Assembly (NCBI GenBank): GCA_016183435.1 | Contig: JACPEQ010000011.1 | Location: 1 to 54,355, forward strand | Source: Chloroflexota bacterium | GTDB lineage: Bacteria; Chloroflexota; Limnocylindria; P2-11E | DNA length: 54,355 nt | Direction: 5' to 3' | Part shown: positions 752 through 47,838 of the stretch, in pieces | Layout: each line of letters opens with the position of its first letter | Position numbering within the stretch: position 1 is the stretch's first letter | Notes under the pieces: model-generated | The model's database searches: none | Told to the model about the DNA's origin: nothing | Seen by the model: the letters and a program-made list of their open reading frames with translations, nothing else | Program-made: the position numbers and the translations under genes

Positions 752-1656
752 TGCGGGAGCGGCCGCGGGCGTACGCGATCGTGAACCCCGCGGCCGGCCA
801 TGGCAGGGGGGCGCGCCTCGCGCGGACGATCGGCGCGGAGTTCGAGGCGGCCGGCATGACGCTCGAGGTCGCGGTGAGCCCGGGACCCGGCGAGGCCGCG
901 CGTCTCGCGAGCGGCGCGGTCGACGACGGGCACACCGTCGTGCTCGCGGTCGGTGGAGACGGGACGGCGAACGAGGTGGCGAACGGGATGGTCGGCGGCG
1001 CGGCGGCACTGGCGCTCTACCCGATCGGGTCGGGCAACGACCTCGCTCGCTCGCTCGGCTACCCGCGCGGTCGCGCCCGTCGGCGCATCGCGCAGTGGCT
1101 CGCGACCGAGGCGCGCCGGCGCACGATCGACGTGGGCGAGGTGAACGGGCGGATCTTCCTCAACGCCGCGGGGATCGGCATCGACGGCCATGTCGCGGAG
1201 CGCGTGGTCGCGGCCGAGCGCGTGATCGGCCCGCGCTGGGCGGCATACCTCATCGGCTCGGTGATCTCGATCGCGACGTATCGTCCACAGCGGATGGAGG
1301 TCCGCATCGACGGCGAGACCCAGCTCGGGGACTTCCTCACGATCGTCGCGTCGAACGGCCGCTTCTTCGGGAGCGGCATGCAGCCCGCCCCTCGTGCGCG
1401 GCTCGACGACGGGATGCTCGACGTCACCGTGGCCGGCGATCTCTCGAGGCTCCAGTCGCTCGGGGCGCTCGCACGGCTCTACTTCGGGAAGCACGAGAAC
1501 GGCACGACCATCGTCACGAGGACGGCGCGCCGGGTCGAGATCGACCTGCCGCGCACGCTCCCGATGGAGCTCGATGGCGAGGTCGGGCACGTGGATCACC
1601 TGAGGATCGCCGTGCGTCCGGGCGCACTGGACGTCATGGCGGCGCCCGTGCCGTGA
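751..1656 (+). CDS. Diacylglycerol/lipid kinase family protein (YegS/BmrU type)
   Basis: 301 aa with the AVGGDGTANEV (GGDGT) motif and GSGNDLAR. The length fits DAGK-catalytic-domain lipid kinases. Confidence 0.85.
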   Translation: MRERPRAYAIVNPAAGHGRGARLARTIGAEFEAAGMTLEVAVSPGPGEAARLASGAVDDGHTVVLAVGGDGTANEVANGMVGGAAALALYPIGSGNDLARSLGYPRGRARRRIAQWLATEARRRTIDVGEVNGRIFLNAAGIGIDGHVAERVVAAERVIGPRWAAYLIGSVISIATYRPQRMEVRIDGETQLGDFLTIVASNGRFFGSGMQPAPRARLDDGMLDVTVAGDLSRLQSLGALARLYFGKHENGTTIVTRTARRVEIDLPRTLPMELDGEVGHVDHLRIAVRPGALDVMAAPVP

Positions 1657-1816
1657 AAGCGCCTGCGGCTAAAGGCGGCGCGCGCAGCGCGACCGCCGAG
1701 AAGAAAGCGCCTGCGCCGTGAAAGCGCCTGCGGCCAAAGGCGGCGCGCGCAGCGCGACCGCCGAGAGGAAAGCGGCTGCGGCTAAAGGCGGCGCGCGCAG
1801 CGCGACCGCCGAGAGG
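1656..1816 (+). repeat. 48-bp tandem repeat, about 3.3 units, each unit containing a GC-rich bulged hairpin
   Basis: Units aaagcgSctgcggcYaaaggcggcgcgcgcagcgcgaccgccgagaRg lie at 1656-1703, 1721-1768 and 1769-1816, with a 17-nt partial unit at 1704-1720. The core ggcggcgcgcgcagcgcgaccgcc folds as 5+5 bp with a gca triloop. Confidence 0.9.
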
Positions 1817-3160
1817 AAAGAAGACGCGCGGCGGCGCCTCCCGTCCGTCGACGCCGTCCTGCGTGAGGCGGGACCGCTCGACGCGCGCGCGCGCGAGCGG
1901 CTGACCGCGGCGGTGCGGGACCTGCTCGCCGAGCGGCGCGCGAGCGGCGAAGGCCTCGGTGCCGGCGCCGCCGCGCGGCTCGCGCGCGAGCGCCTCGCCG
2001 AGCGCGACCGGCCCACGCTCCGCCGGGTCCTCAACGCCACCGGCGTGGTGCTCCACACGAACCTCGGCCGCGCGCCGCTCTCCGCGCGGGCGATCGACGC
2101 GATGCGCGACGCGGCCGCCGCCGTGAGCGTCGAGTACGACCTCGCCGCCGGACGCCGTGGCGAGCGGCATGGCCACGCCGCGCGGATCCTCGCCGAGGTG
2201 ACCGGCGCCGAGGACGGCGTCGTGGTGAACAACAACGCCGCCGCGGTGCTGCTCGCGCTCGCCGCGCTCGCGGCGCGCCGCGAGGTCATCGTCGCCCGCG
2301 GCGAGCTCGTCGAGATCGGCGGCGCGTTCCGCATCCCGGACGTCCTCGCGCGGTCGGGTGCCAAGCTCGTCGAGGTCGGGACCACGAATCGCACGTACGC
2401 GCGCGACTACGCCGCCGCGATGGGCGGCCGGACCGCGGCGATCCTCCGCGTCCACGCGAGCAACTTCCGCGTGATCGGCTTCACCGCGAGCGCGTCATCG
2501 AAGGAGCTCGCGGCGCTCGCGCGGGAGCGCGGCGTCGCGTTCGTGCACGACCTGGGCAGTGGAACGCTGCTGGACACCGCGCGCCACGGGCTGAGCGAGG
2601 AGGAGACGGTGCAGGAGGCCGTGCGCGCCGGCGCGGACGTCGTGACGTTCAGCGGGGACAAGCTGCTCGGCGGGCCGCAGGCCGGCCTCGCCGTGGGCCG
2701 GGCGGCCGCGATCGCGAAGATGCGCTCGCATCCGCTGATGCGCGCCATGAGACCCGACAAGATCACGATCGCCGCTCTCGTGGCCACGCTCGCCTCGTAT
2801 CGCGACGGCACCGCTGAGCGCGAGCTGCCCGTCTGGCGGATGATCGCCGCGACGACCGCGTCGATCGGCCGCCGCGCGAAGGCGCTCGCCTCGGCGCTGA
2901 CCGCCGCCGGGGTCCGTGCGAGCGTGATCGAGACCCGTTCCACGGTGGGCGGCGGATCGCTGCCCGAGGAGACGCAGCCCTCGCGCGCGGTCGCCCTCGA
3001 CGGTCACGCGACGCGGCTCGCGCAGCGGCTACGGCGCGCGGACCCACCCGTGATCGGCCACGTGATCGAGGAGCGCTTCGTGCTCGACCTGCGCACCGTC
3101 CTCCCGGAGGACGACGAGCTGCTCGCGCGCACGGTGATCAAGGCCCTGAAGGAGATGTAG
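1718..3160 (+). CDS. selA: L-seryl-tRNA(Sec) selenium transferase
   Basis: LPSVDAVL N-terminal motif, VLNATGVVLHTNLGRAPLS, and the PLP-lysine block FSGDKLLGGPQAG. The only canonical start upstream of the conserved N-terminus is GTG 1718, which puts two repeat units in frame (KAPAAKGGARSATAER x2). Confidence 0.9.
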   Translation: MKAPAAKGGARSATAERKAAAAKGGARSATAERKEDARRRLPSVDAVLREAGPLDARARERLTAAVRDLLAERRASGEGLGAGAAARLARERLAERDRPTLRRVLNATGVVLHTNLGRAPLSARAIDAMRDAAAAVSVEYDLAAGRRGERHGHAARILAEVTGAEDGVVVNNNAAAVLLALAALAARREVIVARGELVEIGGAFRIPDVLARSGAKLVEVGTTNRTYARDYAAAMGGRTAAILRVHASNFRVIGFTASASSKELAALARERGVAFVHDLGSGTLLDTARHGLSEEETVQEAVRAGADVVTFSGDKLLGGPQAGLAVGRAAAIAKMRSHPLMRAMRPDKITIAALVATLASYRDGTAERELPVWRMIAATTASIGRRAKALASALTAAGVRASVIETRSTVGGGSLPEETQPSRAVALDGHATRLAQRLRRADPPVIGHVIEERFVLDLRTVLPEDDELLARTVIKALKEM

Positions 3161-17680: not shown

Positions 17681-18783
17681 GGCGCGTTCTCGTCGTCGAG
17701 GATCTCCCCCAGGTCGCGGAGCACCTCAAGGGTCTGCTCGGGCGCGACCAGGAGATGCAGATCACCGGTGTCCAGACGCAGCCGGACGCGGCCGTCGCGC
17801 AGGCGACGACCGAGAAGCCGGAGATCGTCCTCGTCGACTACTTCCTGGGCGGCAAGGAGAACATCGGCCTCCAGGTCGCGAAGCGCATCCGCGCCGGTTC
17901 GCCGGGGACGCGGATCGTGATGATCACCGTGCCGCAGAAGCCGGTCACCCCCCGCCCGGAAGAGGGTATCGACGCGGTGTTCGTCCTGCCGGGCGGAGCG
18001 AACGAGATGGTGCAGGTCCTCGGCGGCGAGAAGCCGGGCGGGGGGGCCAAGGGCGGCGCGACCGCCGTGTACTCGCCCAAGGGCGGGTCGGGGAAGACGC
18101 TCATCGCCGTGAACCTCGCGACGGTCCTTCGCCGCCAGGGATCCTCCGTCGCCGTGATGGACGGGGTGATGCAGTTCGGCTCGGTGCGCCATCTCGTGCA
18201 GGTGCCTCCCGACGCGCGTTCGATCGTCGACCTGCCTCCGGGTGGCGCGATGAAGGGGGCCATGCCCGAGGCGCTGTGGGAAGGCCCGGCGGGCGTGCAC
18301 TATCTGCTCGCGCCGCCGCGGCCGGAGCAGGCTGACCTCGTCGCGGCCTCGGAGGTCCAGACCGCGGTCACGATCCTCTCGGAGACGCATGACCACGTCG
18401 TCGTCGACACGCCCAGCCGGCTCGGTGACGACGCGCTGGGGATCCTCGACGCGGCGAAGACCATCCTCCTCGTAGTGACGTACAGCGGGCCGGCGATCGC
18501 CACGGCGCGGGCGGCGATCGAGACGTTCGACATGCTCGGCTATCGGAAGCAGAAGCCGATCCTCGCGGTGATCTCGCAGTCGGACGAGACCGGCGGGCTG
18601 ACGCGCGGCGCCCTGGAGCATGCCCTCGGCCTGCCGGTCGCGGTGGAGATCCCGACGGATCGCAAGCTCGTCGCCGAATCACTGGCGCGGCAGGAGCCGT
18701 TCACGGTGGCGGCGCCGACGGCACCGATCTCCCAGGCGTTCGGCGCGCTCGCCACCGCGCTCGTCGCACAGCAGCGGAAGTGA
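17677..18783 (+). CDS. Response-regulator receiver domain fused to a CpaE/TadZ-like ParA/MinD-family ATPase
   Basis: ATGA overlap. Receiver fold with RVLVVEDL and IVLVDY, followed by the deviant Walker A YSPKGGSGKTLIAVNLA. Confidence 0.8.
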   Translation: MRRVLVVEDLPQVAEHLKGLLGRDQEMQITGVQTQPDAAVAQATTEKPEIVLVDYFLGGKENIGLQVAKRIRAGSPGTRIVMITVPQKPVTPRPEEGIDAVFVLPGGANEMVQVLGGEKPGGGAKGGATAVYSPKGGSGKTLIAVNLATVLRRQGSSVAVMDGVMQFGSVRHLVQVPPDARSIVDLPPGGAMKGAMPEALWEGPAGVHYLLAPPRPEQADLVAASEVQTAVTILSETHDHVVVDTPSRLGDDALGILDAAKTILLVVTYSGPAIATARAAIETFDMLGYRKQKPILAVISQSDETGGLTRGALEHALGLPVAVEIPTDRKLVAESLARQEPFTVAAPTAPISQAFGALATALVAQQRK

Positions 18784-19601
18784 GCGGGCCCGACCGACCC
18801 ATCGGGGTCTTCGACTCCGGTGTCGGCGGCCTCACGGTCCTCAAGGAGCTTCGCCGCCAGCTGCCGAACGAGTCGACGGTCTACCTCGGGGACGAGGCGC
18901 GCATGCCCTACGGCGAGCGCGAGGCCGCGGAGGTCGTGGAATTCACACGCAAAGCCGTGCAATGGTTCGAGCGCGAAGCACAGCCAAAGTTGATCCTCAT
19001 CGCGTGTAACACGGCGACGGCCGTCGCGCTCGAGATAGTGCGTGAGGAGTCATCCGTGCCGGTGATCGGCGTGATCCGTCCAGGTGCTTCGGCGGCGCTG
19101 ACCGCCACCTCCAGGCGAGCAGTTGGCGTCTTGGCCACGCGATTGACCGTGCGATCGGGCGCCTATTTCCGGGCACTGCGGGATCTCGACCCTCTGATCG
19201 ACGTCATCCAGCAGCCGGCGCCGAAGCTCGTGCCGCTGATCGAGGCCGGCGGCGCGCGGTCGGACGAGGCGCGCGCCGCGGTCCGTGAATACATCGCGCC
19301 GATGCTGAGCGAAGGCGCAGTAGTGGCGCCAGGTGTCGACACGATCCTTCTCGGCTGCACGCACTATCCGTTGGTAAGGTGGGCCATCGAGCAGATCACG
19401 GGCCCGGTCGTGCGCGTCGTCGACTCCGCGACCACGACAGCGCTTGCGGTGCGAGAGGTCCTGGACTCGCATCGTCTGCGTGCGACGGGAGACACGCCGA
19501 CCCAACGCGTTCACGCGACCGGCTCCTTGGACACGTTCGTGCAAGTCGCGCGCGCAATGTTCGGTCAGGCGACTGAGGTACATCCTGCGACTTTGTCCTA
19601 A
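18780..19601 (+). CDS. murI: Glutamate racemase (compositionally mosaic)
   Basis: IGVFDSGVGGLTVLKEL, ACNTA and GCTHYP catalytic blocks with a GTGA overlap. By hand count, GC drops from about 71% (18781-18880) to about 58% (18941-19040). Confidence 0.9.
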   Translation: MSGPDRPIGVFDSGVGGLTVLKELRRQLPNESTVYLGDEARMPYGEREAAEVVEFTRKAVQWFEREAQPKLILIACNTATAVALEIVREESSVPVIGVIRPGASAALTATSRRAVGVLATRLTVRSGAYFRALRDLDPLIDVIQQPAPKLVPLIEAGGARSDEARAAVREYIAPMLSEGAVVAPGVDTILLGCTHYPLVRWAIEQITGPVVRVVDSATTTALAVREVLDSHRLRATGDTPTQRVHATGSLDTFVQVARAMFGQATEVHPATLS

Positions 19602-20087
19602 GGCTCCCGCCTTCGAGATACTGGTTTCCCGAACTGGTGCGCCGTCGTCCTGGCTTCGGAGAAATTCCGAAGCTCAGGCCTTTCCACTCTCAGGTGGTCC
19701 ACGAAAGCCGGGTCAACTCCACTCCTATGCGGCCTCGCCTGTAGCGCGCCACACGCCGCCAGCTTCTGAGAACTGCTCCTCCTTGGTCCGGACATCGCGG
19801 GAACGATCGCATTGACAGCCAGGACAGTGGTAGTCCGCCGCCCGTACTCCGCTTGGCTGCGCTTGGCGCCAGAGCTCGAGGTTCTCCGGCCGGTTGTCGT
19901 CCCGACGCCCATTCTTGTGATGCACGCGCTCATTGGGCTCGAGGTAGCGTCCCTGGATGGAGTGGCAAGCGCCCGCGAGCGCGCTCGCGTTCTACGAACG
20001 CCTTGGTTTGAAGGGTGATGCCTGTCCCGATCCAGGTCACCCGTTCTTCGAGATCGACTTCGCTAGGACCGACAAGTCCCGTCCAGC
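19602..20087. mobile_element. Low-GC insertion remnant carrying a decayed HNH endonuclease gene
   Basis: About 59% GC (19601-19700, hand count). It lies between intact murI and a displaced native murI 3' fragment. Hairpin gcttcgga-gaaat-tccgaagc at about 19653-19675. Confidence 0.55.
19725..20060 (-). pseudogene. HNH endonuclease, truncated and frameshifted
   Basis: Minus-strand translation ACHSIQGRYLEPNERVHHKNGRRDDNRPENLELWRQAQPSG matches the HNH core. The frame is closed by TAG at 19992-19994 with no start, and the upstream part (..TKAFVERERARG) is in another frame. Confidence 0.7.
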
Positions 20088-20306
20088 GTGAAGCCGCCAG
20101 GTGCGCCGAAGCTCGTCCCGCTCATCGAGGCCGTCGGTGCGAGGTCGGAAGAGGCTCGCGAGGTGCTGGACTCGCACGGCCTGCGCGCGCTCGGCGGCAT
20201 GGCGACACATGAGGTGTTCGCCACGGGGGAAGGCCGCCGCTTCCGGGAGATCGCGAAGACGATGTTCCGCGAGGACGTGATCGTGAACGAGGCGGTCCTC
20301 GCGTGA
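20088..20306 (+). pseudogene. Displaced native 3' fragment of murI with an internal deletion
   Basis: APKLVPLIEAVGARSEEAR joined directly to EVLDSHGLRA..ATG....F..IAKTMF parallels murI residues APKLVPLIEAGGARSDEAR ... EVLDSHRLRA..ATG. It has host-like high GC, and its TGA overlaps the ychF GTG (GTGA). Confidence 0.75.
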
Positions 20307-21403
20307 ACGTCGTCACCACGATCACCGGGCTGCCGTTCGTCGGGAAGACGACGCTGTTCGACCTTCTCACCGGGCAGCACGTCGCGACCGGGACGTTCGC
20401 CGGCGCCGAGGCGGAGACGAACGTCGGCGTGGCCAAGGTCCCCGACGAGCGGCTCGACAGGCTCGTCCCGCTCTTCAAGCCGAAGAAGACCACCCACGCC
20501 GAGATCACCTATCGCGACCTCGGCCTCGCGAAGGGCGGGGGAGAGATCAGCACGAAGAAGCTCGGCGACCTACGCACGTCCGACGCGCTGCTGCACGTGG
20601 TGCGGGCGTTCCGTGATCCGACCGTGCCGCATCCGGAGGGCTCGGTCGATCCCGTGCGCGACCTCGCGACGCTCGATCTCGAGCTCGTGGTGTCCGACCA
20701 CTCCGTCGTCGAACGGCGGATCGAGCGGATCGAGCCGGAGATCCGCGGCGCGCGCGCGGGAGGGGAGCGCGAGGCGAAGGAGCGCGAGCGGGACCTGCTG
20801 CGGCGGTGCCTCGCGGCGCTCGACGCGGAGACGCCGCTACGCGAGCTCGACCTCGAGGCGGAGGAGCTGAAGGTACTGCGCGGCTACCGCTTCCTGACGC
20901 TCATGCCGCAGCTGGTCGTCGTGAACCTGGATGAGGCCGACGTCGCCGCTCCGGACGCGACGCTCGCGCCGGTCCGTGCGGCGGCGTCGACGCACCGCTC
21001 GACCGGGGTCGTCCACGTCTGCGCGAAGCTCGAGGCCGAGATCGCCGAGCTGTCACCGGAGGAGGCGACGGCCTTCCGCGAAGAGGCCGGCCTGCACGAG
21101 CCGGCGCTCGACCGCGTGCTGCGCGCGACGTACGACCTGCTCGGGCTCATCTCCTTCTTCACGGTCGGCCCCGACGAATGCCGCGCGTGGACGGTCCGCA
21201 AGGGCGCCACGGCCCCTGAAGCGGCCGGGGCGATCCACTCGGACCTCGAGCGCGGCTTCATCCGCGCGGAGGTCACGAAGTGGGACGACATGCTCCGTGC
21301 CGGCTCCGAGGCGGAGGCGAAGAAACACGCGCTGACGAGAACGATCGGCAAAGACGCGGTCGTGAACGACGGCGAGATCGTCCACGTGCTGTTCAACGTG
21401 TGA
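20303..21403 (+). CDS. ychF: YchF-type (Obg family) GTPase/ATPase, divergent
   Basis: P-loop GLPFVGKTTLFDLLTG and the C-terminal DUF933/TGS-like block ECRAWTVRKGATAPEAAGAIHSDLERGFIRAEV. Confidence 0.85.
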   Translation: MNVVTTITGLPFVGKTTLFDLLTGQHVATGTFAGAEAETNVGVAKVPDERLDRLVPLFKPKKTTHAEITYRDLGLAKGGGEISTKKLGDLRTSDALLHVVRAFRDPTVPHPEGSVDPVRDLATLDLELVVSDHSVVERRIERIEPEIRGARAGGEREAKERERDLLRRCLAALDAETPLRELDLEAEELKVLRGYRFLTLMPQLVVVNLDEADVAAPDATLAPVRAAASTHRSTGVVHVCAKLEAEIAELSPEEATAFREEAGLHEPALDRVLRATYDLLGLISFFTVGPDECRAWTVRKGATAPEAAGAIHSDLERGFIRAEVTKWDDMLRAGSEAEAKKHALTRTIGKDAVVNDGEIVHVLFNV

Positions 21404-21419
21404 TCTCGAGCGTCCCGCT

Positions 21420-22097
21420 CTAGTCCTCGGTCAGGTGGAAGAACTCCTTCCGCAGCTCGGGGTCCTCGGCGTAGAACCCGCGCCACGTCTGGGTCCGCGT
21501 CTTCGGGCTGACCTCACGGACACCGCGCATCTGGGTGCACAGGTGGTGGGCCTCGATGTGCACCGCGACGCCGTGCGCATTCACGAGCGACTGGAGCGCC
21601 TCGGCGATCTGATCGCCCATGCGCTCCTGCACCGTGAAGCGCTTCGCGAACACGCGCACGATCCTGGTCAGCTTCGAGATCCCGATGATCTGCTCGTGGG
21701 CGATGTAGCACACGTACGCCTGTCCGTGGAAGGGGAAGGCGTGGTGCTCGCACAGGGCGAAGAAGGGGATGGGCCCTTCGACGATCTGGTCGACGTGGCA
21801 CGCCGCGCCGCCCTTGCACTCGGTCGGGAAGGCCGTGAGCACCTTGGGGTCACCCTCGTAACCCTCGGTCGCGTCGTAGAGCGCGCGGACGAAGCGGCGC
21901 GGAGTGTCGCGCGTGCCGGGCTCGTCGACGGCCATGCCGAACGCCTCGAAGAGCTCGCGGACATAGCCCTCGAAGGTCGCCCACTGCTCGTCGGAGAGCT
22001 CGCGCCTGCGGACGAGCAGGGGCGAGCGGACCTCCTCGTCGTCCGCGGGCAGATGGGAGTGCGCGACGGCCTGCGGTGGCGTGGCTCCGCGGTCCAC
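21420..22097 (-). CDS. folE: GTP cyclohydrolase I (type 1)
   Basis: ALCEHHAFPFHG, ISKLTRIVRVFAKRFTVQERM and HHLCTQMRGV blocks. The start is assigned to GTG 22097; the longer ORF to 22355 is Arg/Pro-rich and runs into the repeat. Confidence 0.85.
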   Translation of the reverse strand: MDRGATPPQAVAHSHLPADDEEVRSPLLVRRRELSDEQWATFEGYVRELFEAFGMAVDEPGTRDTPRRFVRALYDATEGYEGDPKVLTAFPTECKGGAACHVDQIVEGPIPFFALCEHHAFPFHGQAYVCYIAHEQIIGISKLTRIVRVFAKRFTVQERMGDQIAEALQSLVNAHGVAVHIEAHHLCTQMRGVREVSPKTRTQTWRGFYAEDPELRKEFFHLTED

Positions 22098-22169
22098 TGC
22101 GTCCCAGTATGTCCGCCTGCGAGACTGAGCGTCGTGGTGCCGGACTGAGCGAGCGCGCCCGATCCCTCT

Positions 22170-22332
22170 CGATCGGCCACGTCGCACGGGACGAGTTCCC
22201 CGACGGGGCCCACCGGCTCGGCGGCACGGCGCTCTACGCGGCGGCGACCGCCGCTCATCTGGGCGTCCCGAGCGCTCTCGTGACGCGCGTCGGCCCGAAC
22301 GAGAGGGCCGAGCTGACGCGCACGTGTGCCGA
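22170..22332 (+). repeat. Direct repeat copy 1 (start-less pfkB 5' fragment)
   Basis: 163 nt matching 24864-25026 with one mismatch by my alignment. It encodes IGHVARDEFPDGAHRLGGTALYAAATAAHLGVPSALVTRVGPNERAELTRTCAE but lacks the start region. Confidence 0.95.
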
Positions 22333-22358
22333 ATCCTGAGCGCGCTGCTCTTCAACGT

Positions 22359-22694
22359 CTAGGGAGCGCCGAGGCCGATGACCTCCTCGACGGGCAGCAC
22401 GAAGAGGAACCCGACCCCCGGCTGATCGAGGTCGCCGGCCCGGACCATCGCGCGAACCACCGCCTCGGCGTCGCGTTCCGGCACGACGACGAGCACGATC
22501 TCCTTCTCCGGCTCGACGGCGAGCCCGAGCAGGCCGAGCCGCTCGCGGATACCCAGCCCGCGACCGAAGAACGCGACCGCGCTCTGCGCGCCCGCCTTCA
22601 GCGCGGCCCTGATCGGCCGTTCGGCGCGTCCACGCTGGACGATGGCCACGATCATCCGGCTCGCACCGTTCGCGCCTCGCGCCATGTCGCTCAT
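22359..22694 (-). CDS. PII-like (GlnB superfamily) small signalling protein B
   Basis: 111 aa with the beta-alpha-beta-beta-alpha-beta pattern MIVAIVQRGRAE..AALKAGA....F.GRGLGIRE...PEKEIVLVVV...GFLFVLPVEEV. Its ATG overlaps the upstream stop (ATGA). Confidence 0.8.
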   Translation of the reverse strand: MSDMARGANGASRMIVAIVQRGRAERPIRAALKAGAQSAVAFFGRGLGIRERLGLLGLAVEPEKEIVLVVVPERDAEAVVRAMVRAGDLDQPGVGFLFVLPVEEVIGLGAP

Positions 22695-23032
22695 CGCGCG
22701 TCCTCCCTGATCGCTTCGAGCAGCCCGACGACGTGCGCGACCGGCACCGTGATCACGCGGTCGGATGCTCCGTACCCGTCGGCCGCCGCCCCGACCATCG
22801 CCCGCGCGACATCGCCCGCTATGCCTGGATCGACCACAGTGAGCAGGACCTCCTTCTCGGCCTGGATCGCGAGCCCGGACGCGCCGACCTGCTGATGAGC
22901 GTCGTATCCACGGCCCACGAACACCGTCGCCGCCTGAGCGCCGGCGCGTATCGCCGCGCCCGCGTGGCGGTCACCTTCTCCCCTCGGGACCACGGCGATG
23001 ATGAGCCGCGGGCGGGCGCCGGCCGCGCTCAC
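22691..23032 (-). CDS. PII-like (GlnB superfamily) small signalling protein A
   Basis: 113 aa, RLIIAVVPRGEGDR..AIRAGAQAATVFVGRGYDAHQQ...AEKEVLLTVV...VITVPVAHVVGL. The GTG start overlaps the DUF1538 stop (GTGA). Confidence 0.75.
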   Translation of the reverse strand: MSAAGARPRLIIAVVPRGEGDRHAGAAIRAGAQAATVFVGRGYDAHQQVGASGLAIQAEKEVLLTVVDPGIAGDVARAMVGAAADGYGASDRVITVPVAHVVGLLEAIREDAR

Positions 23033-24717
23033 GGCGAGGGTCCGGTCTGTGGCGACATGGACACCGACCGGTCGTGCTCGAGCACCGCGGAGGGCCGGAC
23101 GCTGGTATGCGACACGACGAGCCCGAGCCCGAGCACGGTGAGGATCGGCCCGATCGAGGCCAGCGCCAGCATGCCGAACGCGTCTGAGACGCCGACGCTC
23201 CCGCCGATCCCGAGTCCCATGGCGAGCACGAGCGGGACCGTGATCGGGCCGGTCGTCACGCCGGCGCTGTCCCAGCCCACGTTCGTGTACTTCTCGTCCG
23301 AGACCGCCGTCACGACCATCAGCGCGAGGTACGGTGGGATCACCAGGACCGCGATCGGGACGTCGAACATGACCTTCGCGATCCCCGCCGCGAGGCCGAG
23401 GCCGACCCCGACCGCGACGGCCTGGATGAGGAGGGTCTTGCGGAAGGCGCCGGCGGTCACCTCCTCGACGGTGATGCCCATCGCGTTGAGCGCCGGCTCC
23501 GCCATCGTGGCCCCATATCCGAGGACGAAGGCGAACGCGACCGTGACCAGACGGCCGCCGACCTCGCCGTACAGCGCGACAGGCGGGGAGAACGCGTTCG
23601 GGACGTTGCTGCCGACCTGCTGGCCGAGCGTGACCAGGCCGGTGCTCAGCCCGAGGTTGAACAGCCCGAGGCCGATGACGGCGAGGATGAGACCGAGCGT
23701 GATCTGGTCGAGTCGGCGCACTCGCTCGCGCAGGACGATGCGCTGGATGACCAGGAGGAACGCTGCCAGCGGGATGACCGCCTGGAGGGCGGACTGCATC
23801 GAGACGAGCATCAGCTCGGCGAGCGACGGAGCCGGACCGCTCGCGGAGGCGGACGGAGCGAGCACGCTCGCCATCGCCGCTCCGCCGCCGACGTAGAAGA
23901 CGGCGAGCGCCAGCGACAGCACCGTCGCGACCGGCCACAGTGACGCGAGCGTCACGATCCCGAAGCCGCTCATCCCGGTGTCCGACCTGCCTAGCACCGC
24001 GGACACGCCCAGGCCGAGCGCGAGCACGAGAGGGACGGTCACCGGTCCGGTCGTGATCCCGCCGGTGTCCCATGCGAGCGCGACGACGTCGCGTGTGTCG
24101 GGATGCATCTGCGCGATCACGGTCAGCGCGAGGCAGCCGGCGAGCGATGGGAACAGCAGCAGCTTCAGGCTCCAGCCGCGCGCGAACCGGTACACACCGA
24201 GCACCGTGGCGATCCCAACTCCGATGCCGATCATGAGGATGAGCAGCGGAGAGCTCCGTCCGAGCAGCTCGTGGAGCAGCGGAGCGTCCTCCGCGCTGAT
24301 GCCCGAGCCGGCTGCTTTGAGCGTGCTGATCGCCGGCTCGGCGTAGGTCGCGCCCAGGCCGATCACGAACGCGATCGCGAGGATCACCCACATCCTCGCT
24401 CGTCGGGGCAGCGTCGCGCCGATGTTCTCGCCGAGCGGCATGAGCCCGAGGCGGAGGCCCTCCATGAAGAACATCAGGCCGAGGATCACGAGGGTCAGTC
24501 CGAGGGCGATGCCGACGGCGCCCGCGACGCTCAGGCGCAGTGCGACCAGCTGGAAGAGGAGGAGGAACAGCGAGATCGGTGCGACCGCGATCACCTGTGC
24601 CTTGATCCGATCCATCACGAACGGGCCGAGGATCGAAAGGACGAGACGCGGTGTGATGGGAATGCGGTAGCGGACCGCGGCCGACCGAGTGTGGTCGGCG
24701 GTGGAATGGGCCTCCAC
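23029..24717 (-). CDS. DUF1538 family integral membrane protein (internally duplicated)
   Basis: Two homologous halves, each with a GATYAEPA / GYGATMAEPA block and a WDTGGITTGPVTVPLVLALGLG / WDSAGVTTGPITVPLVLAMGLG block. The start is taken as GTG 24717 (agggggcagc upstream), with ATG 24615 as an alternative. The ORF-track extension to 24921 runs into the repeat and is Arg-rich. Confidence 0.8.
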   Translation of the reverse strand: MEAHSTADHTRSAAVRYRIPITPRLVLSILGPFVMDRIKAQVIAVAPISLFLLLFQLVALRLSVAGAVGIALGLTLVILGLMFFMEGLRLGLMPLGENIGATLPRRARMWVILAIAFVIGLGATYAEPAISTLKAAGSGISAEDAPLLHELLGRSSPLLILMIGIGVGIATVLGVYRFARGWSLKLLLFPSLAGCLALTVIAQMHPDTRDVVALAWDTGGITTGPVTVPLVLALGLGVSAVLGRSDTGMSGFGIVTLASLWPVATVLSLALAVFYVGGGAAMASVLAPSASASGPAPSLAELMLVSMQSALQAVIPLAAFLLVIQRIVLRERVRRLDQITLGLILAVIGLGLFNLGLSTGLVTLGQQVGSNVPNAFSPPVALYGEVGGRLVTVAFAFVLGYGATMAEPALNAMGITVEEVTAGAFRKTLLIQAVAVGVGLGLAAGIAKVMFDVPIAVLVIPPYLALMVVTAVSDEKYTNVGWDSAGVTTGPITVPLVLAMGLGIGGSVGVSDAFGMLALASIGPILTVLGLGLVVSHTSVRPSAVLEHDRSVSMSPQTGPSP

Positions 24718-24850
24718 GCTGCCCCCTTGGGCCCCCTTCACTTCGGCGCGGAGCCTAGCGGCCCTCCGTACGCTCGGGATACGGGCGAACGGTCGTTCGA
24801 GCGAGCGCGCCGACCGCGCGGGCCTGATGCTTCGCCTCGTGCGGGACCGG

Positions 24851-25687
24851 GTGCGCTTCCTCGCGATCGGCCACGTCGCACGGGACGAGTTCCCCGACGG
24901 GGCACACCGGCTCGGCGGCACGGCGCTCTACGCGGCGGCGACCGCCGCTCATCTGGGCGTCCCGAGCGCTCTCGTGACGCGCGTCGGCCCGAACGAGAGG
25001 GCCGAGCTGACGCGCACGTGTGCCGAGCTTGGCATCGACCTCCGCGCGCTCGACGCGCTCGTCACGACGACGTTCGCCTTCCGCTGGGACGGGACCGGCA
25101 AGCGGATCCTGCGCCTGAAGGCGCGCGCGAAGGCGATCGCGCTCGCCGACGTCCCCGATGACCTGCGCGCGGCCGATGCGCTCGTCCTCGGATCGATCGC
25201 GCGCGAGCTGTCGGAGGACCTGCTGCTCGGCGAGACCGCACGGATCTCGGTGCTCGCCGCGCAGGGTCTCTTGCGGACATGGGACGCGGACGGCACGGTC
25301 CGGCCGGCGACCTGGGACCGCGCCGAGCAGGACATCCGCGCCCTGTCCGCGGTCGTGCTCAGCGACGAGGACGTCGCGGGCGATGCGGGCGCGGTGGCGC
25401 GCTGGTCGGCGGTCGTGCCCGTGGTGCTGACCCTCGCCGATCGGGGCTGCCGCATCTACGAGCGCGGGCATCCGACCGTCGAGCTCCGTGCGTATCCGCC
25501 GGCGCGCATGGTGGACACGACCGGGGCGGGCGACACGTTCGCGGCGGGCCTGGCCGTCGCGCTCGGTGAGGGCCGCGCTCTCGCCGATGCATGCCGGTTC
25601 GCCAATGCCGTCGCGTCCTTCGGGCTCGAAGGGCCCGGCATCGCGGGCCTGGCGACGCGTGAGGCCGTGGAGCGGCGGCTAGGCTAG
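24851..25687 (+). CDS. PfkB-family carbohydrate kinase
   Basis: N-terminal VRFLAIGHVARD and the C-terminal anion-hole motif DTTGAGDTFAAG. The start is GTG 24851, in frame with the track ORF. Confidence 0.85.
   Translation: MRFLAIGHVARDEFPDGAHRLGGTALYAAATAAHLGVPSALVTRVGPNERAELTRTCAELGIDLRALDALVTTTFAFRWDGTGKRILRLKARAKAIALADVPDDLRAADALVLGSIARELSEDLLLGETARISVLAAQGLLRTWDADGTVRPATWDRAEQDIRALSAVVLSDEDVAGDAGAVARWSAVVPVVLTLADRGCRIYERGHPTVELRAYPPARMVDTTGAGDTFAAGLAVALGEGRALADACRFANAVASFGLEGPGIAGLATREAVERRLG
24864..25026 (+). repeat. Direct repeat copy 2 (5' end of the intact pfkB-family gene)
   Basis: See copy 1. A further 13-nt match, gagcgagcgcgcc, lies upstream of both copies (22147 and 24799). Confidence 0.95.
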
Positions 25688-25694
25688 ATCGCGC

Positions 25695-28600
25695 ATGCTG
25701 CGGTGCCCCGTCTGCAACGCCGACAACCCTGAGGCCGCGCGTTTCTGCAACAGCTGCGGGAACCGCCTGCCCGAGCGGAAGACGACGGGCACGTCCGAAC
25801 GCAAGGTCGTGACCGTCCTCTTCTGCGACGTGAAGGGCTCGACCGCGCTGGCGGAGAAGCTCGATCCCGAGGAGTGGACCGAGGTCATCGACGGCGCGTT
25901 CCGGACGCTGACCCCGCCGATCCAGCGCTACGGCGGCACGGTCGCGCGGCTCCTCGGCGACGCGGTCCTGGCGTTCTTCGGCGCGCCGGTCGCGCATGAG
26001 GACGATCCTGAGCGCGCGCTCCGCGCGGGGCTCGAGATGCTCCAGGCGACGGTGGCCTACCGCGAGCGGCTGGTGCGCGAGCGCGGCGCGTCCTTCAGCG
26101 AGTTCGACATCCGCATCGGCATCAACACCGGCCTCGCGGTCATCGGCGACGTCGGCGGCGGCCAGGCGGTCGAGTACACGGGGATGGGGGACGCCGTGAA
26201 CGTCGCCGCGCGGCTGCAGTCGCTCGCGAAGCCCGGGGCCATGCTCGTGTCCGAGCACACCCTGAAGCTCGTTCCGCCGGTCTTCGACTGGGAGCCGGCG
26301 GGCCAGCTCGACCTCACGGGCCGCGAGGGGAAGCTCGAGGCCTTCGTCGTCCGCGGGCTCGCGGCGGCGGTCACGCGCGCGAAGCCGCGCGGGCTCATTA
26401 CGCCGCTCGTCGGTCGCGATCGCGAGATGGCTGCGCTGCGGGACGCGCTCGCCGAGCTGCGTCGCGGCGGCGGCCGCATCGTCTCGGTGATCGGCGACGC
26501 CGGGCTGGGGAAGACCCGCCTCATCGACGAGTTCCGGCGAGAGTGGGAGGCGGCGCCCGTCGACGGCCAGCGCTGGAGCGAAGCGCGCGGGCAGTCGTAC
26601 GAGCAGGCGCGGCCGTACGGCCTCATCCGTCAGCATCTCCTCTCGCTCGGAGGCGCGAGCGAGGCCGACCCGCCCGACGTCATCCGCGGGCGCGTGACGG
26701 CCCTGCTGCCCGAGGAGCGTCGCGCCGACGAGCGGTCCCTCCGCACCCTGGAGGTCTTCCTCGCCGTCGAGCCGGTCGCCGCGACTCCCGGGCCGGAGGG
26801 CCAGGAGCTGCGCGCCGAGCTGCACGCGCTCATGCGCGACGTCGCGCGCGGCCTCGCGGCGTGCCAGGCCGTGTTCGTCTTCGACGACCTGCAGTGGTCG
26901 GATCCCGCGTCCGCCGAGCTGCTGATGGAGACGCTCGAGATCGCTGACGAGCTGCCGGTGCTGTTCATCTGCTCCTTTCGCCCTGACCGCCAGGCGCCGT
27001 CGTGGCGGGTGAAGCAGAAGCTCGAGACGGACTTCCCGCATCGCTCGCGCGAGCTGGTGCTCGAGCCGCTCTCCGGTACGGACAGCGCGTCGCTCCTGGA
27101 CCATCTGCTGCCGGGGCGAGGGGTCCCGGAGGACCTTCGCGAGCTGATCCTCGAGAAGGCCGAGGGGAACCCCATGTTCCTCGAGGAGATCGTGCGGACC
27201 CTCATGGACGATGGGACGATCGTTCGTGACGGAGCGGGCTGGCGGGTCACGCGTGAGGTCGCGGCGATCGCGCTCCCGGGATCGCTGCGGGCGGTGCTCG
27301 CGGCGCGCATCGACCGCCTCGACGCCGATGCGCGCGAGACGCTTCAGGCGGCCTCGGTCATCGGCCGCACCTTCCTGTACCGGATCCTCGCGTCCATTCG
27401 CGAGGCGAGCGCGACGCTCGATCGTCAGCTGCTGGCGCTGCAGCGTCTCGAGCTCGTCCGCGAGCAGGCCCGCGAGCCCGAGCGGGAGTACGCGTTCCGC
27501 CATGCGCTCACCCAGGAGGCCGCGTACGGGTCGATCCTCCAGCGCCGGAGGCGCGAGCTCCACGCGCGCGTCGGGGAAGCGCTCCAGCGGCTCTTCCCGG
27601 ACCGCATGGAGGAGCTGGCGGCGATCGTCGGACACCACTACGCGGAGGCCGGGGACGCCCGCGCGGTCGGGCTCCTGCGCATCGCCGGCGATCGGGCCTC
27701 GCGTCTCTTCGCCGTCGACGACGCGATCATGCACTACCGGCGCGCCGTCTCGCTCCTTCGCCCGGCCGAGGAAGAGCCCGAGCTGCTGTGCGCCATCTAC
27801 GCGAAGTACGGTCGCGCCCTCGAGCTCCAGGGCTCCTATCCCGAGGCGCTCGCGCTTTATCGCGACCTCGAGCGGATCGGCCAGGAGCGCGGCGACCTCG
27901 GCATCGAGGCGGCCGCGCTCTCGAGCCAGATCACGGTGCACTCGAACCCGACGCCGCTCATCGACCCGAAGCGCGCCGCGGAGCTCGCCGAGCGGTCGAT
28001 CGGGGTCGCTCGGAAGCGCGGCGACCGCCGCCTCCTCGCGCGGCTGCTGTGGAACAAGGGGCAGGCGGGCATGTGGCGGGGGGAGCCGGACGCGGGCAGC
28101 GAGGCGGGCATCGAGTCGGTCACGATCGCTCGCGAGATCGGCGACACGGAGCAGCTCGCGTACTCGCTGAACGGGCTCGGGCAGTCGTACCGCGAGCTCG
28201 CGCGCCTCGACGACGCGGAGCGCGTGCTCACGGAGTCGGTCGCGCTCTTCCGCGAGGTGGGGAACCGCGCGATGGAGGCGGACAGCCTGAGCACGCTCGC
28301 GTTCATCCACGTCGGCCGCGGCGACCTCGAGAGGGCGCTCCGGTCAGGCGAAGAGGCGTACCGCATCAGCGACGAGATCGACAACGCGTGGGGCCGCGGC
28401 TACGGGCTGTTCACGCCGTCGTACGTGCACGCCATCCGCGGTGACCTCGGAAAGGCGCTCGACACCTATGAGGAGTGCGTGCGGTGGGCGGAGCTCGGCG
28501 GCTTCTACGCCGCGGTCACCGGCCCCGGGTCGGACCTCGGCTGGCTCTACGTCGCGTGCGGCGACACCGATCGAGGCCTCGCGCACCTCGAGCGGGTCGC

Positions 28601-29213
28601 CGAGCTGTCACGGCGGCAGTTCCCCAGATGGCAGGCGTGGCCGCTCGCGCAGACGGCGAGGGCCCTCCTCCTCGTCGGCCAGGTCGCGCGGGCGAGCCAG
28701 GTGCTCGCCACCGCGAAAGAGGTCGCCGCCGAGGGTGAGAGCGGGCCGCGCCGCCGAGAGGTGTTCATGGCCACGTACCTGTCGCTGGCGTCGGCGGAGC
28801 TCGCGCTCGCGGCCGGGCGCTTCGGCGAGGCCGCGAGGGTCGCCGCCGAAGGGGCCGTCCAGCTCGCTGCGCTCAAGGTCCGCCCGGACACGCTCGAGTT
28901 CTACCTGCTCGAGGCCGAGGCGCGCGTCTCCGCGGGTGACCTGTCCGGGGCCGAGGCAGCGATCGCGCGCGCACAGGAGAACGCCGACGCGCTCGGTGCT
29001 CGGGCGCAGGTGTGGCGGATCCTCGCGGTCCGCGCACGCGTGGCCGAGTCGCGCGGACAGGCCGATGCGGCGATGCGCCACTGGCGGGACGCCGCCGCCG
29101 CCGCCGAGGAGATCGCGGCCACGCTGCGCCCGCGGGGTCTCGACGATCGCTTCCGGGCCCGGCCCGACGTGAGCGCGGTCCTGTCACGGGCCCGGGTCGC
29201 TCCCGGGCGATGA
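25695..29213 (+). CDS. Zinc-ribbon / class III adenylate-guanylate cyclase / AAA(STAND) ATPase / TPR multidomain protein
   Basis: CPVCNADNPEAARFCNSCG ribbon, cyclase block VVTVLFCDVKGST..GDAVLAFFG..IGINTG, P-loop GDAGLGKTRL, and a long C-terminal TPR-like repeat region. Confidence 0.85.
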   Translation: MLRCPVCNADNPEAARFCNSCGNRLPERKTTGTSERKVVTVLFCDVKGSTALAEKLDPEEWTEVIDGAFRTLTPPIQRYGGTVARLLGDAVLAFFGAPVAHEDDPERALRAGLEMLQATVAYRERLVRERGASFSEFDIRIGINTGLAVIGDVGGGQAVEYTGMGDAVNVAARLQSLAKPGAMLVSEHTLKLVPPVFDWEPAGQLDLTGREGKLEAFVVRGLAAAVTRAKPRGLITPLVGRDREMAALRDALAELRRGGGRIVSVIGDAGLGKTRLIDEFRREWEAAPVDGQRWSEARGQSYEQARPYGLIRQHLLSLGGASEADPPDVIRGRVTALLPEERRADERSLRTLEVFLAVEPVAATPGPEGQELRAELHALMRDVARGLAACQAVFVFDDLQWSDPASAELLMETLEIADELPVLFICSFRPDRQAPSWRVKQKLETDFPHRSRELVLEPLSGTDSASLLDHLLPGRGVPEDLRELILEKAEGNPMFLEEIVRTLMDDGTIVRDGAGWRVTREVAAIALPGSLRAVLAARIDRLDADARETLQAASVIGRTFLYRILASIREASATLDRQLLALQRLELVREQAREPEREYAFRHALTQEAAYGSILQRRRRELHARVGEALQRLFPDRMEELAAIVGHHYAEAGDARAVGLLRIAGDRASRLFAVDDAIMHYRRAVSLLRPAEEEPELLCAIYAKYGRALELQGSYPEALALYRDLERIGQERGDLGIEAAALSSQITVHSNPTPLIDPKRAAELAERSIGVARKRGDRRLLARLLWNKGQAGMWRGEPDAGSEAGIESVTIAREIGDTEQLAYSLNGLGQSYRELARLDDAERVLTESVALFREVGNRAMEADSLSTLAFIHVGRGDLERALRSGEEAYRISDEIDNAWGRGYGLFTPSYVHAIRGDLGKALDTYEECVRWAELGGFYAAVTGPGSDLGWLYVACGDTDRGLAHLERVAELSRRQFPRWQAWPLAQTARALLLVGQVARASQVLATAKEVAAEGESGPRRREVFMATYLSLASAELALAAGRFGEAARVAAEGAVQLAALKVRPDTLEFYLLEAEARVSAGDLSGAEAAIARAQENADALGARAQVWRILAVRARVAESRGQADAAMRHWRDAAAAAEEIAATLRPRGLDDRFRARPDVSAVLSRARVAPGR

Positions 29214-31486: not shown

Positions 31487-31502
31487 CGTCAGGTCCTTCC
31501 GT

Positions 31503-31590
31503 CCCCCACGCGCGCAGACCGAGGCGCGCACGCCGAGGTCGGGCACGTGGGCCTGAGGGAGGGCTTTGCCCGACCGAGGGTCGGAACAGG
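31503..31590 (+). repeat. Dispersed repeat family, copy E1
   Basis: cgcgcgcagaccgaggcgcgc ... cccgaccgagggtcggaacagg shares its 5' and 3' ends with the copies at 36742, 43466 and 47750. Confidence 0.75.
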
Positions 31591-36732: not shown

Positions 36733-36741
36733 GACTGCGTA

Positions 36742-36840
36742 CCCGGGCGCGCAGACCGAGGCGCCGCAGCGCGCTACGCGCACAGGGCTCCTACCCCTGG
36801 GCACTCGCGAGGGGTTCCCCCGAGCGACGGTCGGAATAGG
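36742..36840 (+). repeat. Dispersed repeat family, copy E2
   Basis: cccgggcgcgcagaccgaggcgccgcagcg ... ggttcccccgagcgacggtcggaatagg. The interior differs from E3/E4. Confidence 0.75.
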
Positions 36841-43292: not shown

Positions 43293-43465
43293 CGCCACCA
43301 GCGTCGCTCGAGCGGGAGCGAGTAGCCCGGCGGAGGCCGTTCAGAGAACCCCGGCTGGTGCGAAGGGGGACGGCGGAGCCAGGCGAATGGGTCCCGCGAG
43401 ACGCCGCCTCGAACGCGCAAGCCAGTAGAGGCGGCCGGAAGCCCTCCGTTACCTGGGCATCCGTA

Positions 43466-43556
43466 CCCCCCGGGCGCGCGGACCGAGGCGCGAAGCGACG
43501 AGGTCGAGCACCCGGGCCAAGCGAGCGGGTCTCCCGCGAGCGAGGTCGGAACAAGG
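43466..43556 (+). repeat. Dispersed repeat family, copy E3 (inside the T-box leader)
   Basis: ccccccgggcgcgcggaccgaggcgcgaagcgacgaggtcgagcacccggg ... gcgagcgaggtcggaacaagg. It is about 80% identical to E4 by eye. Confidence 0.75.
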
Positions 43557-46915: not shown

Positions 46916-47838
46916 CCGACTTCCTCGACCAGGTCGTCGCGGAACGGCGAGCGGACGCCGCGCGCGCCAGGCGCGACCGGACGGAGGCCGCGGTGTACGA
47001 AGAGGCGCTGCTGCGCGGCTGCACGGCGATCGCGCGGCACGGCAGCGGCGGCGACGCGTTCACGCAGGCGTTCCGGCGGCGGCGCGACCGCGAACAGCTC
47101 GCGGTCATCGCCGAGGTGAAGCGCGTCTCTCCCGCGCTCGGAACGCTCCGCGCGGACGCCGACGTCCGCGCGATCGCACGGCGCTACGAACGCGCCGGCG
47201 CGACGGCGATCTCCGTCCTGTGCGAGCCTCGCCACTGGGGCGGATCGCTGAAGGACCTCGCGACCGTCCGGGAAGTCGTGGGGATCCCGGTGTTGTGCAA
47301 GGACGTGATCGTCGACGAACGGCAGATCGTCGAGGCCTGGGCCTCAGGCGCGCACGCCGTCCTCCTGATCGCGGAGGCGCTGGAGGACGCCGAGCTGCGG
47401 CGTCTGATGGAGCGCGCCCGGGAGCTCGGCATGGGCGTGCTGGTCGAGGCGCACGAGACGCGGGCCTTCGAGCGTGCGGCCGCGAGCGGCGCGAGCGTCC
47501 TCGGCGTGAACGCTCGCGACCTGCGCTCGCCGAAGGAGATCCATCCGGAGCGCATCGGGCTGCTGCACGACATCGCGAAGCCGTCGCAGATCCTCGTCGC
47601 GGAGTCGGGCATCGGCAGTGTCGACGACGCGCTCGCGCTGCCCGCGCGCGTCGATGCCGTCCTCGTGGGCACGGCGCTCATGCGCGCGGACGATCCCACG
47701 GCGCTCATCCGCCATCTCGCGGCGCTGCCGCGGGAGAGTCGAGCGGTACCCGCGGGCGCGCAGACCGAGGCGCCGCAGCGACGAGGTCGAGCACCCGTGC
47801 CCGAGGGAGGGGTCCCCCCGAGCGAGGGTGGAAATTGA
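46912..47838 (+). CDS. trpC: Indole-3-glycerol-phosphate synthase with a repeat-derived C-terminal extension
   Basis: ATGA overlap. Blocks [36 protein letters not shown] and AESGI. The last roughly 35 codons (..[30 protein letters not shown]) are read through repeat copy E4. Confidence 0.88.
47750..47834 (+). repeat. Dispersed repeat family, copy E4 (inside the trpC 3' end, abutting the trpB start)
   Basis: cccgcgggcgcgcagaccgaggcgccgcagcgacgaggtcgagcacccgtgcccgagggaggggtccccccgagcgagggtggaa. Confidence 0.8.

Follow-up and report, generated by a model that had tools for sequence, protein, structure and literature searches.

How does the 5' end of one gene come to stand, almost unchanged, on both sides of three other genes? 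The question is raised by a locus on a 54,355-nucleotide (nt) stretch of DNA from a Chloroflexota bacterium (GTDB lineage Bacteria; Chloroflexota; Limnocylindria; P2-11E; assembly GCA_016183435.1, contig JACPEQ010000011.1, positions 1 to 54,355), which at its full length is called the window here. A 5' fragment of a pfkB-family kinase gene (copy 1) lies beside folE, a second copy (copy 2) forms the start of the intact pfkB gene, and a minus-strand cassette of a DUF1538 membrane protein gene and two small genes lies between them. An earlier note on this DNA had taken the arrangement for the product of a Campbell-type integration, that is, a single crossover of a circular intermediate. Our comparison with related genomes indicates that the two copies are probably the pfkB 5' ends of two haplotypes of one variable locus, put in series by a single non-homologous joint. 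Both parental arrangements were observed directly in relatives and the window is collinear with each of them; the joint itself is real, and a remnant of ychF lies beside it.

Self-BLASTN of the window aligned 22165-22332 with 24859-25026 (166 of 168 nt matching, 98.8% identity, E = 1e-81), by far its strongest self-match, and a separate repeat search found the pair in register at a spacing of 2694. Within the 163-nt core (22170-22332 and 24864-25026) there is a single mismatch, C at 22210 versus A at 24904, as the earlier note had found by its own alignment. Weaker homology continues upstream to 22160/24854 and adds three mismatches (22162, 22164, 22169). Of the 173 aligned nt, the first 51 contain all four mismatches and the last 122 are free of them, for which our own calculation gives (51/173)^4 = 0.008. 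At the other end, a register alignment shows that the homology of the two copies breaks off abruptly at 22332|22333. The repeat comprises 163-188 nt of coding sequence and ends at an arbitrary codon. Copy 2 opens an intact gene (GTG 24851 to 25687); copy 1 is a fragment only, with a stop codon two codons past the joint. A 13-mer, GAGCGAGCGCGCC, is shared upstream of both copies (22147-22159 and 24799-24811), and the chance of such a shared 13-mer was 8e-4 for random pairs of 60-nt segments taken from the window.

Independent data confirmed that this structure exists. A second metagenome-assembled genome (MAG; L017, GCA_016193515.1), more than 99% identical to the window, has the same gene order and identical sequence at all repeat boundaries. 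It differs from the window by 7 single-nucleotide polymorphisms (SNPs) over 21346-25004 (3.66 kb), and its DUF1538 protein is a 100% identical twin. Two Logan unitigs from two SRA runs (L001 and L002, 99.8-99.9% identical) extend out of the cassette over 22333 and break off at 22303. Their end lies exactly 30 nt inside the repeat, which is where a graph of k = 31 is expected to branch at a true repeat, one with two right-hand continuations. Together with the second MAG, these unitigs mean that the joint exists in the reads of several samples. An assembly artefact, which the earlier note had named as fatal to its reading, was not upheld: the same junctions recur in L017, unitigs from two SRA runs cross 22332|22333, and the repeat is real. 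The recombination event is older than the split of at least two sampled strains.

To place the locus among its relatives, contigs of related Chloroflexota, one of them named Candidatus Limnocylindria, were retrieved with PfkB, DUF1538 and FolE as queries. The simplest arrangement is that of L016, with the order murI, ychF, pfkB and no cargo; here the ychF TAG is followed by three bases (GCC) and the pfkB ATG. The more distant L008 has the same order, also without cargo (tblastn). Because both have ychF followed by pfkB, the two genes are ancestrally adjacent in this Limnocylindria-like lineage of the Chloroflexota. Other relatives carry different genes at the same place: an AI-2E transporter gene between ychF and pfkB in L007; PCMT, GNAT and lipoprotein genes in L006; the start of a lipoprotein gene followed by pfkB on the short contig L003, which is of the L006 type and repeats its pfkB-proximal part; and an FMN_bind_2 gene directly upstream of pfkB in L009, whose contig ends before ychF. 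In L021, folE is divergent from pfkB, and L020 has the order ychF, HNH_3, permease fragment, folE (divergent), pfkB; neither has the cassette. L018 has ychF, the cassette and pfkB, with neither folE nor the repeat. Judged by these gene orders, the ychF|pfkB junction is a hotspot a few bases wide with at least six cargo states among relatives. The earlier note had suggested a comparison of the folE-pfkB interval in relatives: L020 and L021 have it without the cassette, and L018 has the cassette without flanking repeats.

The window is collinear with each of the last two arrangements in turn. L021 aligns unbroken with window positions 21416-22332, through folE, the intergenic region and copy 1 to its last base, at 89.8% identity; past the end of copy 1 it continues as the rest of pfkB, matching window 24854-25837 at 88.3%. 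The window FolE protein is 91-93% identical to the FolE of L020 and L021, both encoded divergently from an intact pfkB. For the second arrangement, identity between L018 and the window is 76% in the cassette, 79% in ychF and 77% in the downstream genes. The ychF end of L018 overlaps the end of the P-II gene, and therefore no room is left for a pfkB fragment between them. An arrival of the cassette from elsewhere, as the earlier note had it, did not hold, since L018 carries the cassette at the same ychF|pfkB site without the repeat and with a divergence like that of its flanks. Further homologs of the cassette (72-73% identity) were found on L019 and L024, where the three-gene module stands in unrelated contexts and so tells nothing about the present locus.

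The sequence just past the joint ties the two arrangements together. Twelve nt beyond it begins a remnant of the ychF 3' terminus, CTGCTCTTCAACGTCTAG, the last 12 nt of which, TTCAACGTCTAG, recur unchanged as the ychF terminus in L016 and L006. The string TTCAACGT occurs only twice on both strands of the 54-kb window, at the true ychF end (21392) and in the remnant. The remnant stands tail to tail with the stop of the P-II gene, the same placement as that of the true ychF end in L018, and 5 of its 18 positions are unlike those of the ychF terminus in the window itself. On the strength of these matches, the remnant shows the joint to link pfkB codon 59 to the ychF end of what would be a second copy of the same locus.

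The sequences upstream of the two copies point the same way. According to the earlier note, about 40 nt including the start codon were missing from copy 1, and the duplication had once been longer. We rejected a derivation of copy 1 from copy 2 by loss of 42 nt, since both the folE-type orthologs (L020 and L021) and the empty-site ortholog (L016) are also without the 42 nt found in copy 2 between the 13-mer and the RFL codons. Copy 1 reads CTG AGC GAG CGC GCC CGA TCC CTC; L021 reads CTG AAC GAG CGC GCC CGA TTC CTC, with an in-frame GTG three codons upstream, and L016 reads ATG AGC GGC GGC GCG CGG TTC CTC. In L020, as in copy 1, the spacing upstream of the RFL codons is 33 nt. The cassette-type L018 has a long stretch at the site of the extra 42 nt, preceded by a motif that it shares with window 24778-24798 at 19 of 21 positions; the DUF1538-pfkB intergenic region of the window (24742-24850) contains this motif, the 13-mer and the 42 nt absent from copy 1. 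Because the orthologs are without the 42 nt while L018 has a long stretch there, the alignments make the indel a difference between two haplotypes and not a deletion in copy 1 after duplication.

The start codons of the folE-type genes deserve a separate remark. L021 uses a GTG as in-frame start; the corresponding GTG in the window (22134-22148) and in L020 stands out of frame and opens a four-codon open reading frame whose TGA overlaps the in-frame CTG (GAC TGA / CTG AGC). Because of this frame shift of the GTG upstream of copy 1 and of the L020 pfkB, the true start of the folE-type pfkB genes is ambiguous.

Table 1. Features of the locus in window coordinates, with the evidence for each
Feature	Position	Strand	Basis
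murI	18780-19601	+	Gene content table
ychF, left flank of the hotspot	20303-21403	+	Pfam YchF-GTPase_C, E = 1e-33
folE (GTP cyclohydrolase I), cargo of the folE-type haplotype	21420-22097	-	Pfam GTP_cyclohydroI, E = 1e-51
folE-pfkB intergenic region of the folE-type haplotype, containing conserved TCCGCCTGCGAGACTGAGCGTCGTGG	22098-22144		Three-way alignment with L021 and L020
Copy 1, 5' fragment of folE-type pfkB, spanning the N-terminal extension codons (CTG-AGC-GAG-CGC-GCC) through codon 59; homology to copy 2 begins at 22160/22165	22145-22332	+	Self-BLAST; alignments with L016, L020 and L021
Joint, read as illegitimate	22332-22333		Register alignment; crossed by unitigs L001 and L002; also in L017
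12 nt ATCCTGAGCGCG, possible filler or decayed ychF codons	22333-22344		7/12 match window ychF at the corresponding codons (own count), not significant alone
ychF 3' terminus remnant CTGCTCTTCAACGTCTAG, encoding ..LFNV* (YchF C-terminus)	22345-22362	+	Identity to ychF termini of relatives
P-II-like protein b, 111 aa, cassette gene 3	22359-22694	-	Pfam P-II, E = 1e-5; identical protein on L001 and L002
Small protein a, 113-114 aa, cassette gene 2, no Pfam match	22691-23035	-	Open reading frame list; size and position resemble the P-II-like gene
Membrane protein with two DUF1538 domains, 570 aa (NCBI annotation)	23029-24741	-	Pfam DUF1538 (PF07556), E = 2e-107, two stretches; P0001 100% identical, 570 aa
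DUF1538-pfkB divergent intergenic region of the cassette-type haplotype	24742-24850		L018 alignment; 13-mer statistics
Intact pfkB-family kinase gene; copy 2 is 24854/24859-25026, codons 2-59	24851-25687	+	Pfam PfkB, E = 7e-23
1172-aa cyclase / STAND ATPase / TPR gene	25695-29213	+	Gene content table

The second strain also carries changes of its own at this locus. On its reverse complement, L017 has a 15-nt tandem duplication (CGAACGAGAGGGCCG) within copy 1 at window 22296-22310, and a 49-nt deletion at window 25005-25053, across the right edge of copy 2, that would frameshift pfkB. Both begin after the same GAGAGGGCCG; real instability, decay of pfkB or assembly noise are possible causes. 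At the sole core mismatch of the window, L017 has C in both copies. Farther into pfkB (window 25464-25531) the two strains, otherwise more than 99% identical, differ at 20 of 68 nt (29%). The window version of this patch is 82-84% like the relatives and the L017 version is like none of them, so L017 appears to have imported a short diverged patch, from which it follows that recombination with diverged DNA occurs at the locus.

We favour, as the probable origin of the structure, the joining in series of two haplotypes. In the first, folE is divergent from pfkB; in the second, the DUF1538/P-II/P-II cassette lies between ychF and pfkB. The window would then consist of the folE haplotype from ychF to pfkB codon 59 (to 22332), followed by the cassette haplotype from its own last ychF codons (22345-22362) through the cassette to the intact pfkB. 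We infer that one homologous exchange in a flank and one illegitimate joint, between two closely related genomes, were needed. The pfkB fragment would be a passenger that travelled with folE and not a copy made by a mobile element, and the incoming piece could equally be folE with its fragment. Three routes would yield this same product, and sequence alone does not decide between them: (a) entry of a linear folE-type fragment, with its anchor in ychF, through homology-facilitated illegitimate recombination; (b) entry of a circularised fragment with the ychF end, the cassette and the pfkB 5' end by a single crossover within the homologous pfkB 5' region; and (c) a tandem duplication followed by replacement of one cargo. 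Consistent with route (a), ychF, folE and the fragment are continuous in the window and the other end is a non-homologous joint at 22332|22333.

Several points weigh against the joining of two haplotypes. The parents must have been nearly identical in pfkB codons 5-59. No same-species genome with only one of the haplotypes was found, the closest folE type being about 89% and the closest cassette type about 76% identical, and an exact look-up of the window YchF and FolE for conspecific single-haplotype contigs gave no match on record. The model offers no clear source for the 12 nt at 22333-22344, and in the comparison with relatives the joint shows no clear microhomology. The 5/18 difference of the remnant has to be put down to a presumed haplotype-linked divergence at the edges of the hotspot. 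Of the three left-end differences, those at 22164 and 22169 occur in copy 1 alone and in no folE-type relative, which leaves them uninformative on the donor.

The strongest competitor is the model of the earlier note, in which a circle with the cassette and a pfkB 5' segment entered a folE-pfkB chromosome by one crossover in pfkB, so that 22332|22333 would be the closure point of the circle. The A-X-A layout on which it was built is real, the direct repeats flank the insert as in a Campbell product, and the single crossover of a circle is a valid route. The ychF remnant, cassette, intergenic region and pfkB 5' end are collinear with L018 as one contiguous donor stretch, and the remnant implies that the circle would have come from a ychF-cassette-pfkB locus such as that of L018. 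The pfkB homology of 173-188 nt suffices for a crossover and the ychF remnant (at most 30 nt) does not; any circle would therefore have crossed over in pfkB. In Escherichia coli, most products of assays aimed at homology-facilitated illegitimate recombination turned out to be single crossovers of circular molecules, with partial (lacZ) duplications of 109-950 bp (PMC3240628). However, a linear event anchored at one end predicts an identical final sequence, from which the crossover of a circle is indistinguishable, and nothing favours the circle. Neither an integrase nor an excised form was found, though the junction of a circle would read as the chromosomal 22332|22333 joint, and the structure is kept in both sampled strains. 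The donor would also have to match the recipient without a difference over at least 122 nt of pfkB and yet be sharply different just upstream. We therefore regard an origin from a circle as rather doubtful.

A two-step history fits some details better. A cassette-type genome would first have duplicated in tandem the 2.7 kb between the ychF end and pfkB codon 59, and the first cassette would then have been replaced by folE from a folE-type relative through homologous recombination. Of the three routes this one, route (c), best explains the identity pattern, perfect up to the joint (no mismatch in the last 122 nt) with the mismatches at the left end of copy 1, and it best explains why the remnant and the present ychF terminus are unlike at 5 of 18 positions; imports of diverged patches do occur at the locus. 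The joint of pfkB codon 59 to the ychF 3' end is the novel joint of a tandem duplication, but the two units differ in content (folE versus the DUF1538 cassette). Two rare events and an unstable intermediate are needed, no genome with a duplicated cassette was found, and the two left-end differences peculiar to copy 1 are not folE-type alleles, all of which makes this history very unlikely. As for an assembly artefact, whether a chimeric contig of two co-occurring strains or a collapsed or expanded repeat, its chance is next to negligible: the window is a metagenome-assembled contig and the duplication and deletion inside the L017 repeats could be assembly noise, but the same four junctions stand in a second MAG distinct by its SNPs, unitigs from two further runs span the joint, the ychF remnant is unlike the true ychF end, so that the join cannot come from a shared graph node, and copy-specific differences lie no more than 125 nt from each junction, within ordinary read reach.

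The near-identity of the copies had been taken as the mark of a recent event or of ongoing gene conversion. The event predates the split of the two strains, and zero to one core differences require no conversion. Gene conversion is also an unlikely cause because the identity is perfect to the last base before the joint, where a tract could not resolve, and it is unnecessary given that the two strains differ by only 0.2% here.

The region to the left of the locus has a similar look. The murI-ychF spacer (19602-20306) is a graveyard of gene fragments: an HNH_3 remnant on the minus strand (19725-19925; 84% amino acid identity to the C-terminal part of the intact 352-aa HNH_3 of L020), a GNAT C-terminal remnant on the plus strand (19954-20070; 72% amino acid identity to the intact GNAT of L006), and a murI 3' fragment with an internal deletion (20088-20306), placed directly against ychF just as the real murI end is in L016. 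With its intact gene, its insert and its gene-end fragment, this spacer repeats the pattern next to the same hotspot and is the older of the two cases. HNH endonuclease genes or their remnants recur at the murI-ychF-pfkB interval. It is conceivable, though we consider it unlikely, that the whole interval is an integrase-free site of cargo exchange, perhaps kept active by HNH endonuclease breaks, at which modules are swapped and stacked through partial duplication of a flank and the cassette is reversibly excised or amplified in natural populations.

What the cassette does can be suggested from its domains. The earlier note had described it as a minus-strand DUF1538/PII/PII operon; Pfam supports DUF1538 and one P-II, and the second small protein is without a Pfam match; a gene of the same size follows DUF1538 in L017, L018, L019 and L024. 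UmpAB is a two-component Na+(Li+,K+)/H+ antiporter of the DUF1538 family, its two DUF1538 proteins in Halomonas, UmpA and UmpB, being separate (PMC5484666). The cassette protein, a member of the UmpAB family, has paired DUF1538 domains in one polypeptide. Because DUF1538 proteins include UmpAB, the cassette plausibly encodes a putative cation/proton antiporter with P-II-type regulators.

The structure would have consequences for the population. Precise loss of the cassette by homologous recombination, as had been proposed, is possible, and its product would be the folE-pfkB arrangement present in L020 and L021. The 163-nt repeats would allow RecA-dependent loss or amplification, and natural variants that lack or amplify the putative antiporter/P-II cassette are predicted; the data showed no instance of either. 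In folE-type genomes the starts of folE and pfkB are about 40-160 nt apart; the fragment may therefore carry upstream signals of folE, and folE may retain its own upstream region inside the pfkB fragment. The locus would be a case of cargo added, and not only replaced, at a hotspot of uncultured Chloroflexota without mobile-element machinery, with both parental arrangements still extant. For annotation it is a caution that a gene fragment beside an insert need not signal a mobile element or a recent duplication; here it would be a passenger of a haplotype.

Some further observations concern the surroundings. The window PfkB is 83% identical to the L003 ortholog, which has the same GTG start. 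Downstream of pfkB, L007, L018 and L020 share the 1172-aa cyclase/STAND/TPR gene with the window; L003 and L006 lack it, and there the PIG-L gene comes directly after pfkB. Homology of L017 to the window stops at 28473, where an adh_short gene follows, another variable point in the neighbourhood. A family of GC-rich repeats of about 80 nt, with the core GGGCGCGCAGACCGAGGCGC, was found at window 31498-31588, 36739-36771, 43460-43553 and 47746-47833 and at L007 7561-7649; the copies placed against the gene calls are intergenic, and the family looks like repetitive extragenic palindromic (REP) or miniature inverted-repeat transposable element (MITE) sequences or a small structured RNA. Near the left end of the window (1642-1820), several overlapping direct self-BLAST matches (45-74 nt, 93-98% identity) point to a short tandem array.

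We also searched the locus for the marks of known mobile elements and of regulation. Pfam scans of the genes from 10.3 to 36.7 kb (about 10 kb on each side) found no integrase, transposase or resolvase, the decayed HNH_3 remnant being the sole related feature. There is no compositional island: GC content is 0.68-0.74 throughout, in the cassette as in its flanks, in agreement with the earlier impression of a host-like cassette. The only tRNAs are at 34.7 and 35.7 kb, with no tRNA target at the insert, and the inverted-repeat list holds no arms at the cassette ends. An Rfam search of 18.5-26 kb at E up to 1 gave, in or near the fragment, only a chance miRNA match. A scan for sigma-70 promoters and terminators, ill-suited to a high-GC organism, gave nothing but one terminator-like site in a coding region, within shuffle expectation. 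Two short matches, GAGCGTC (7 nt) to either side of folE and a GACTGAGCG repeat of 9 nt upstream of copy 1, were set aside because their length does not allow an interpretation. An integrase-mediated element or island was rejected for want of a recombinase gene, a tRNA target and a compositional shift, and a transposon or insertion sequence for want of a transposase and terminal inverted repeats, the repeat, at 163-188 nt, being no short target-site duplication.

Set beside known systems, the locus is an example of ordinary genome plasticity: a known process has acted on a chromosomal hotspot, and neither a new mobile element nor a new kind of system is involved. Like islands and prophages with att repeats, it has a gene-end fragment on one side of the insert and the intact gene on the other; unlike them, it has no integrase, tRNA target or compositional shift, and its repeat is a coding sequence of 163-188 nt that ends at an arbitrary codon. 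Integration hotspots of the flexible genome hold variable cargo between conserved core genes; a 2017 Nat Commun study by Oliveira and colleagues is said to give an example. The locus resembles them in its two conserved flanking genes, the many alternative cargoes among relatives and the host-like composition. It differs in that the hotspot is a few bases wide, the mobile-element genes are decayed HNH endonuclease remnants only, and two cargoes are stacked with duplication of a flank.

With Campbell-type integration the locus shares direct repeats of a gene segment around the insert and reversibility by homologous recombination; unlike that process, no circle, plasmid or phage is evident, and the insert, as the ychF remnant suggests, is part of the same chromosomal locus in another haplotype. 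Homology-facilitated illegitimate recombination is on record for transformable bacteria, as PMC5361080 relays from de Vries and Wackernagel 2002, Prudhomme et al. 2002 and Meier and Wackernagel 2003, and its joints are expected to show a short microhomology of about 3-10 nt. Natural transformation is not known from this lineage, and the joint in the window shows no clear microhomology. The same process has been proposed as the source of gene stubs in effector-immunity arrays of the Vibrio type VI secretion system (T6SS) and in Rhs loci (PMC5361080). Unlike those arrays, the window carries metabolic and transport genes in place of toxin-immunity pairs and records one stacking event only. As with the T6SS and Rhs stubs, a conserved locus has gained new cargo without an integrase, by homology on one side and an illegitimate joint on the other; the older cargo is kept and shifted, and partial copies of the conserved flanking gene are left as scars.

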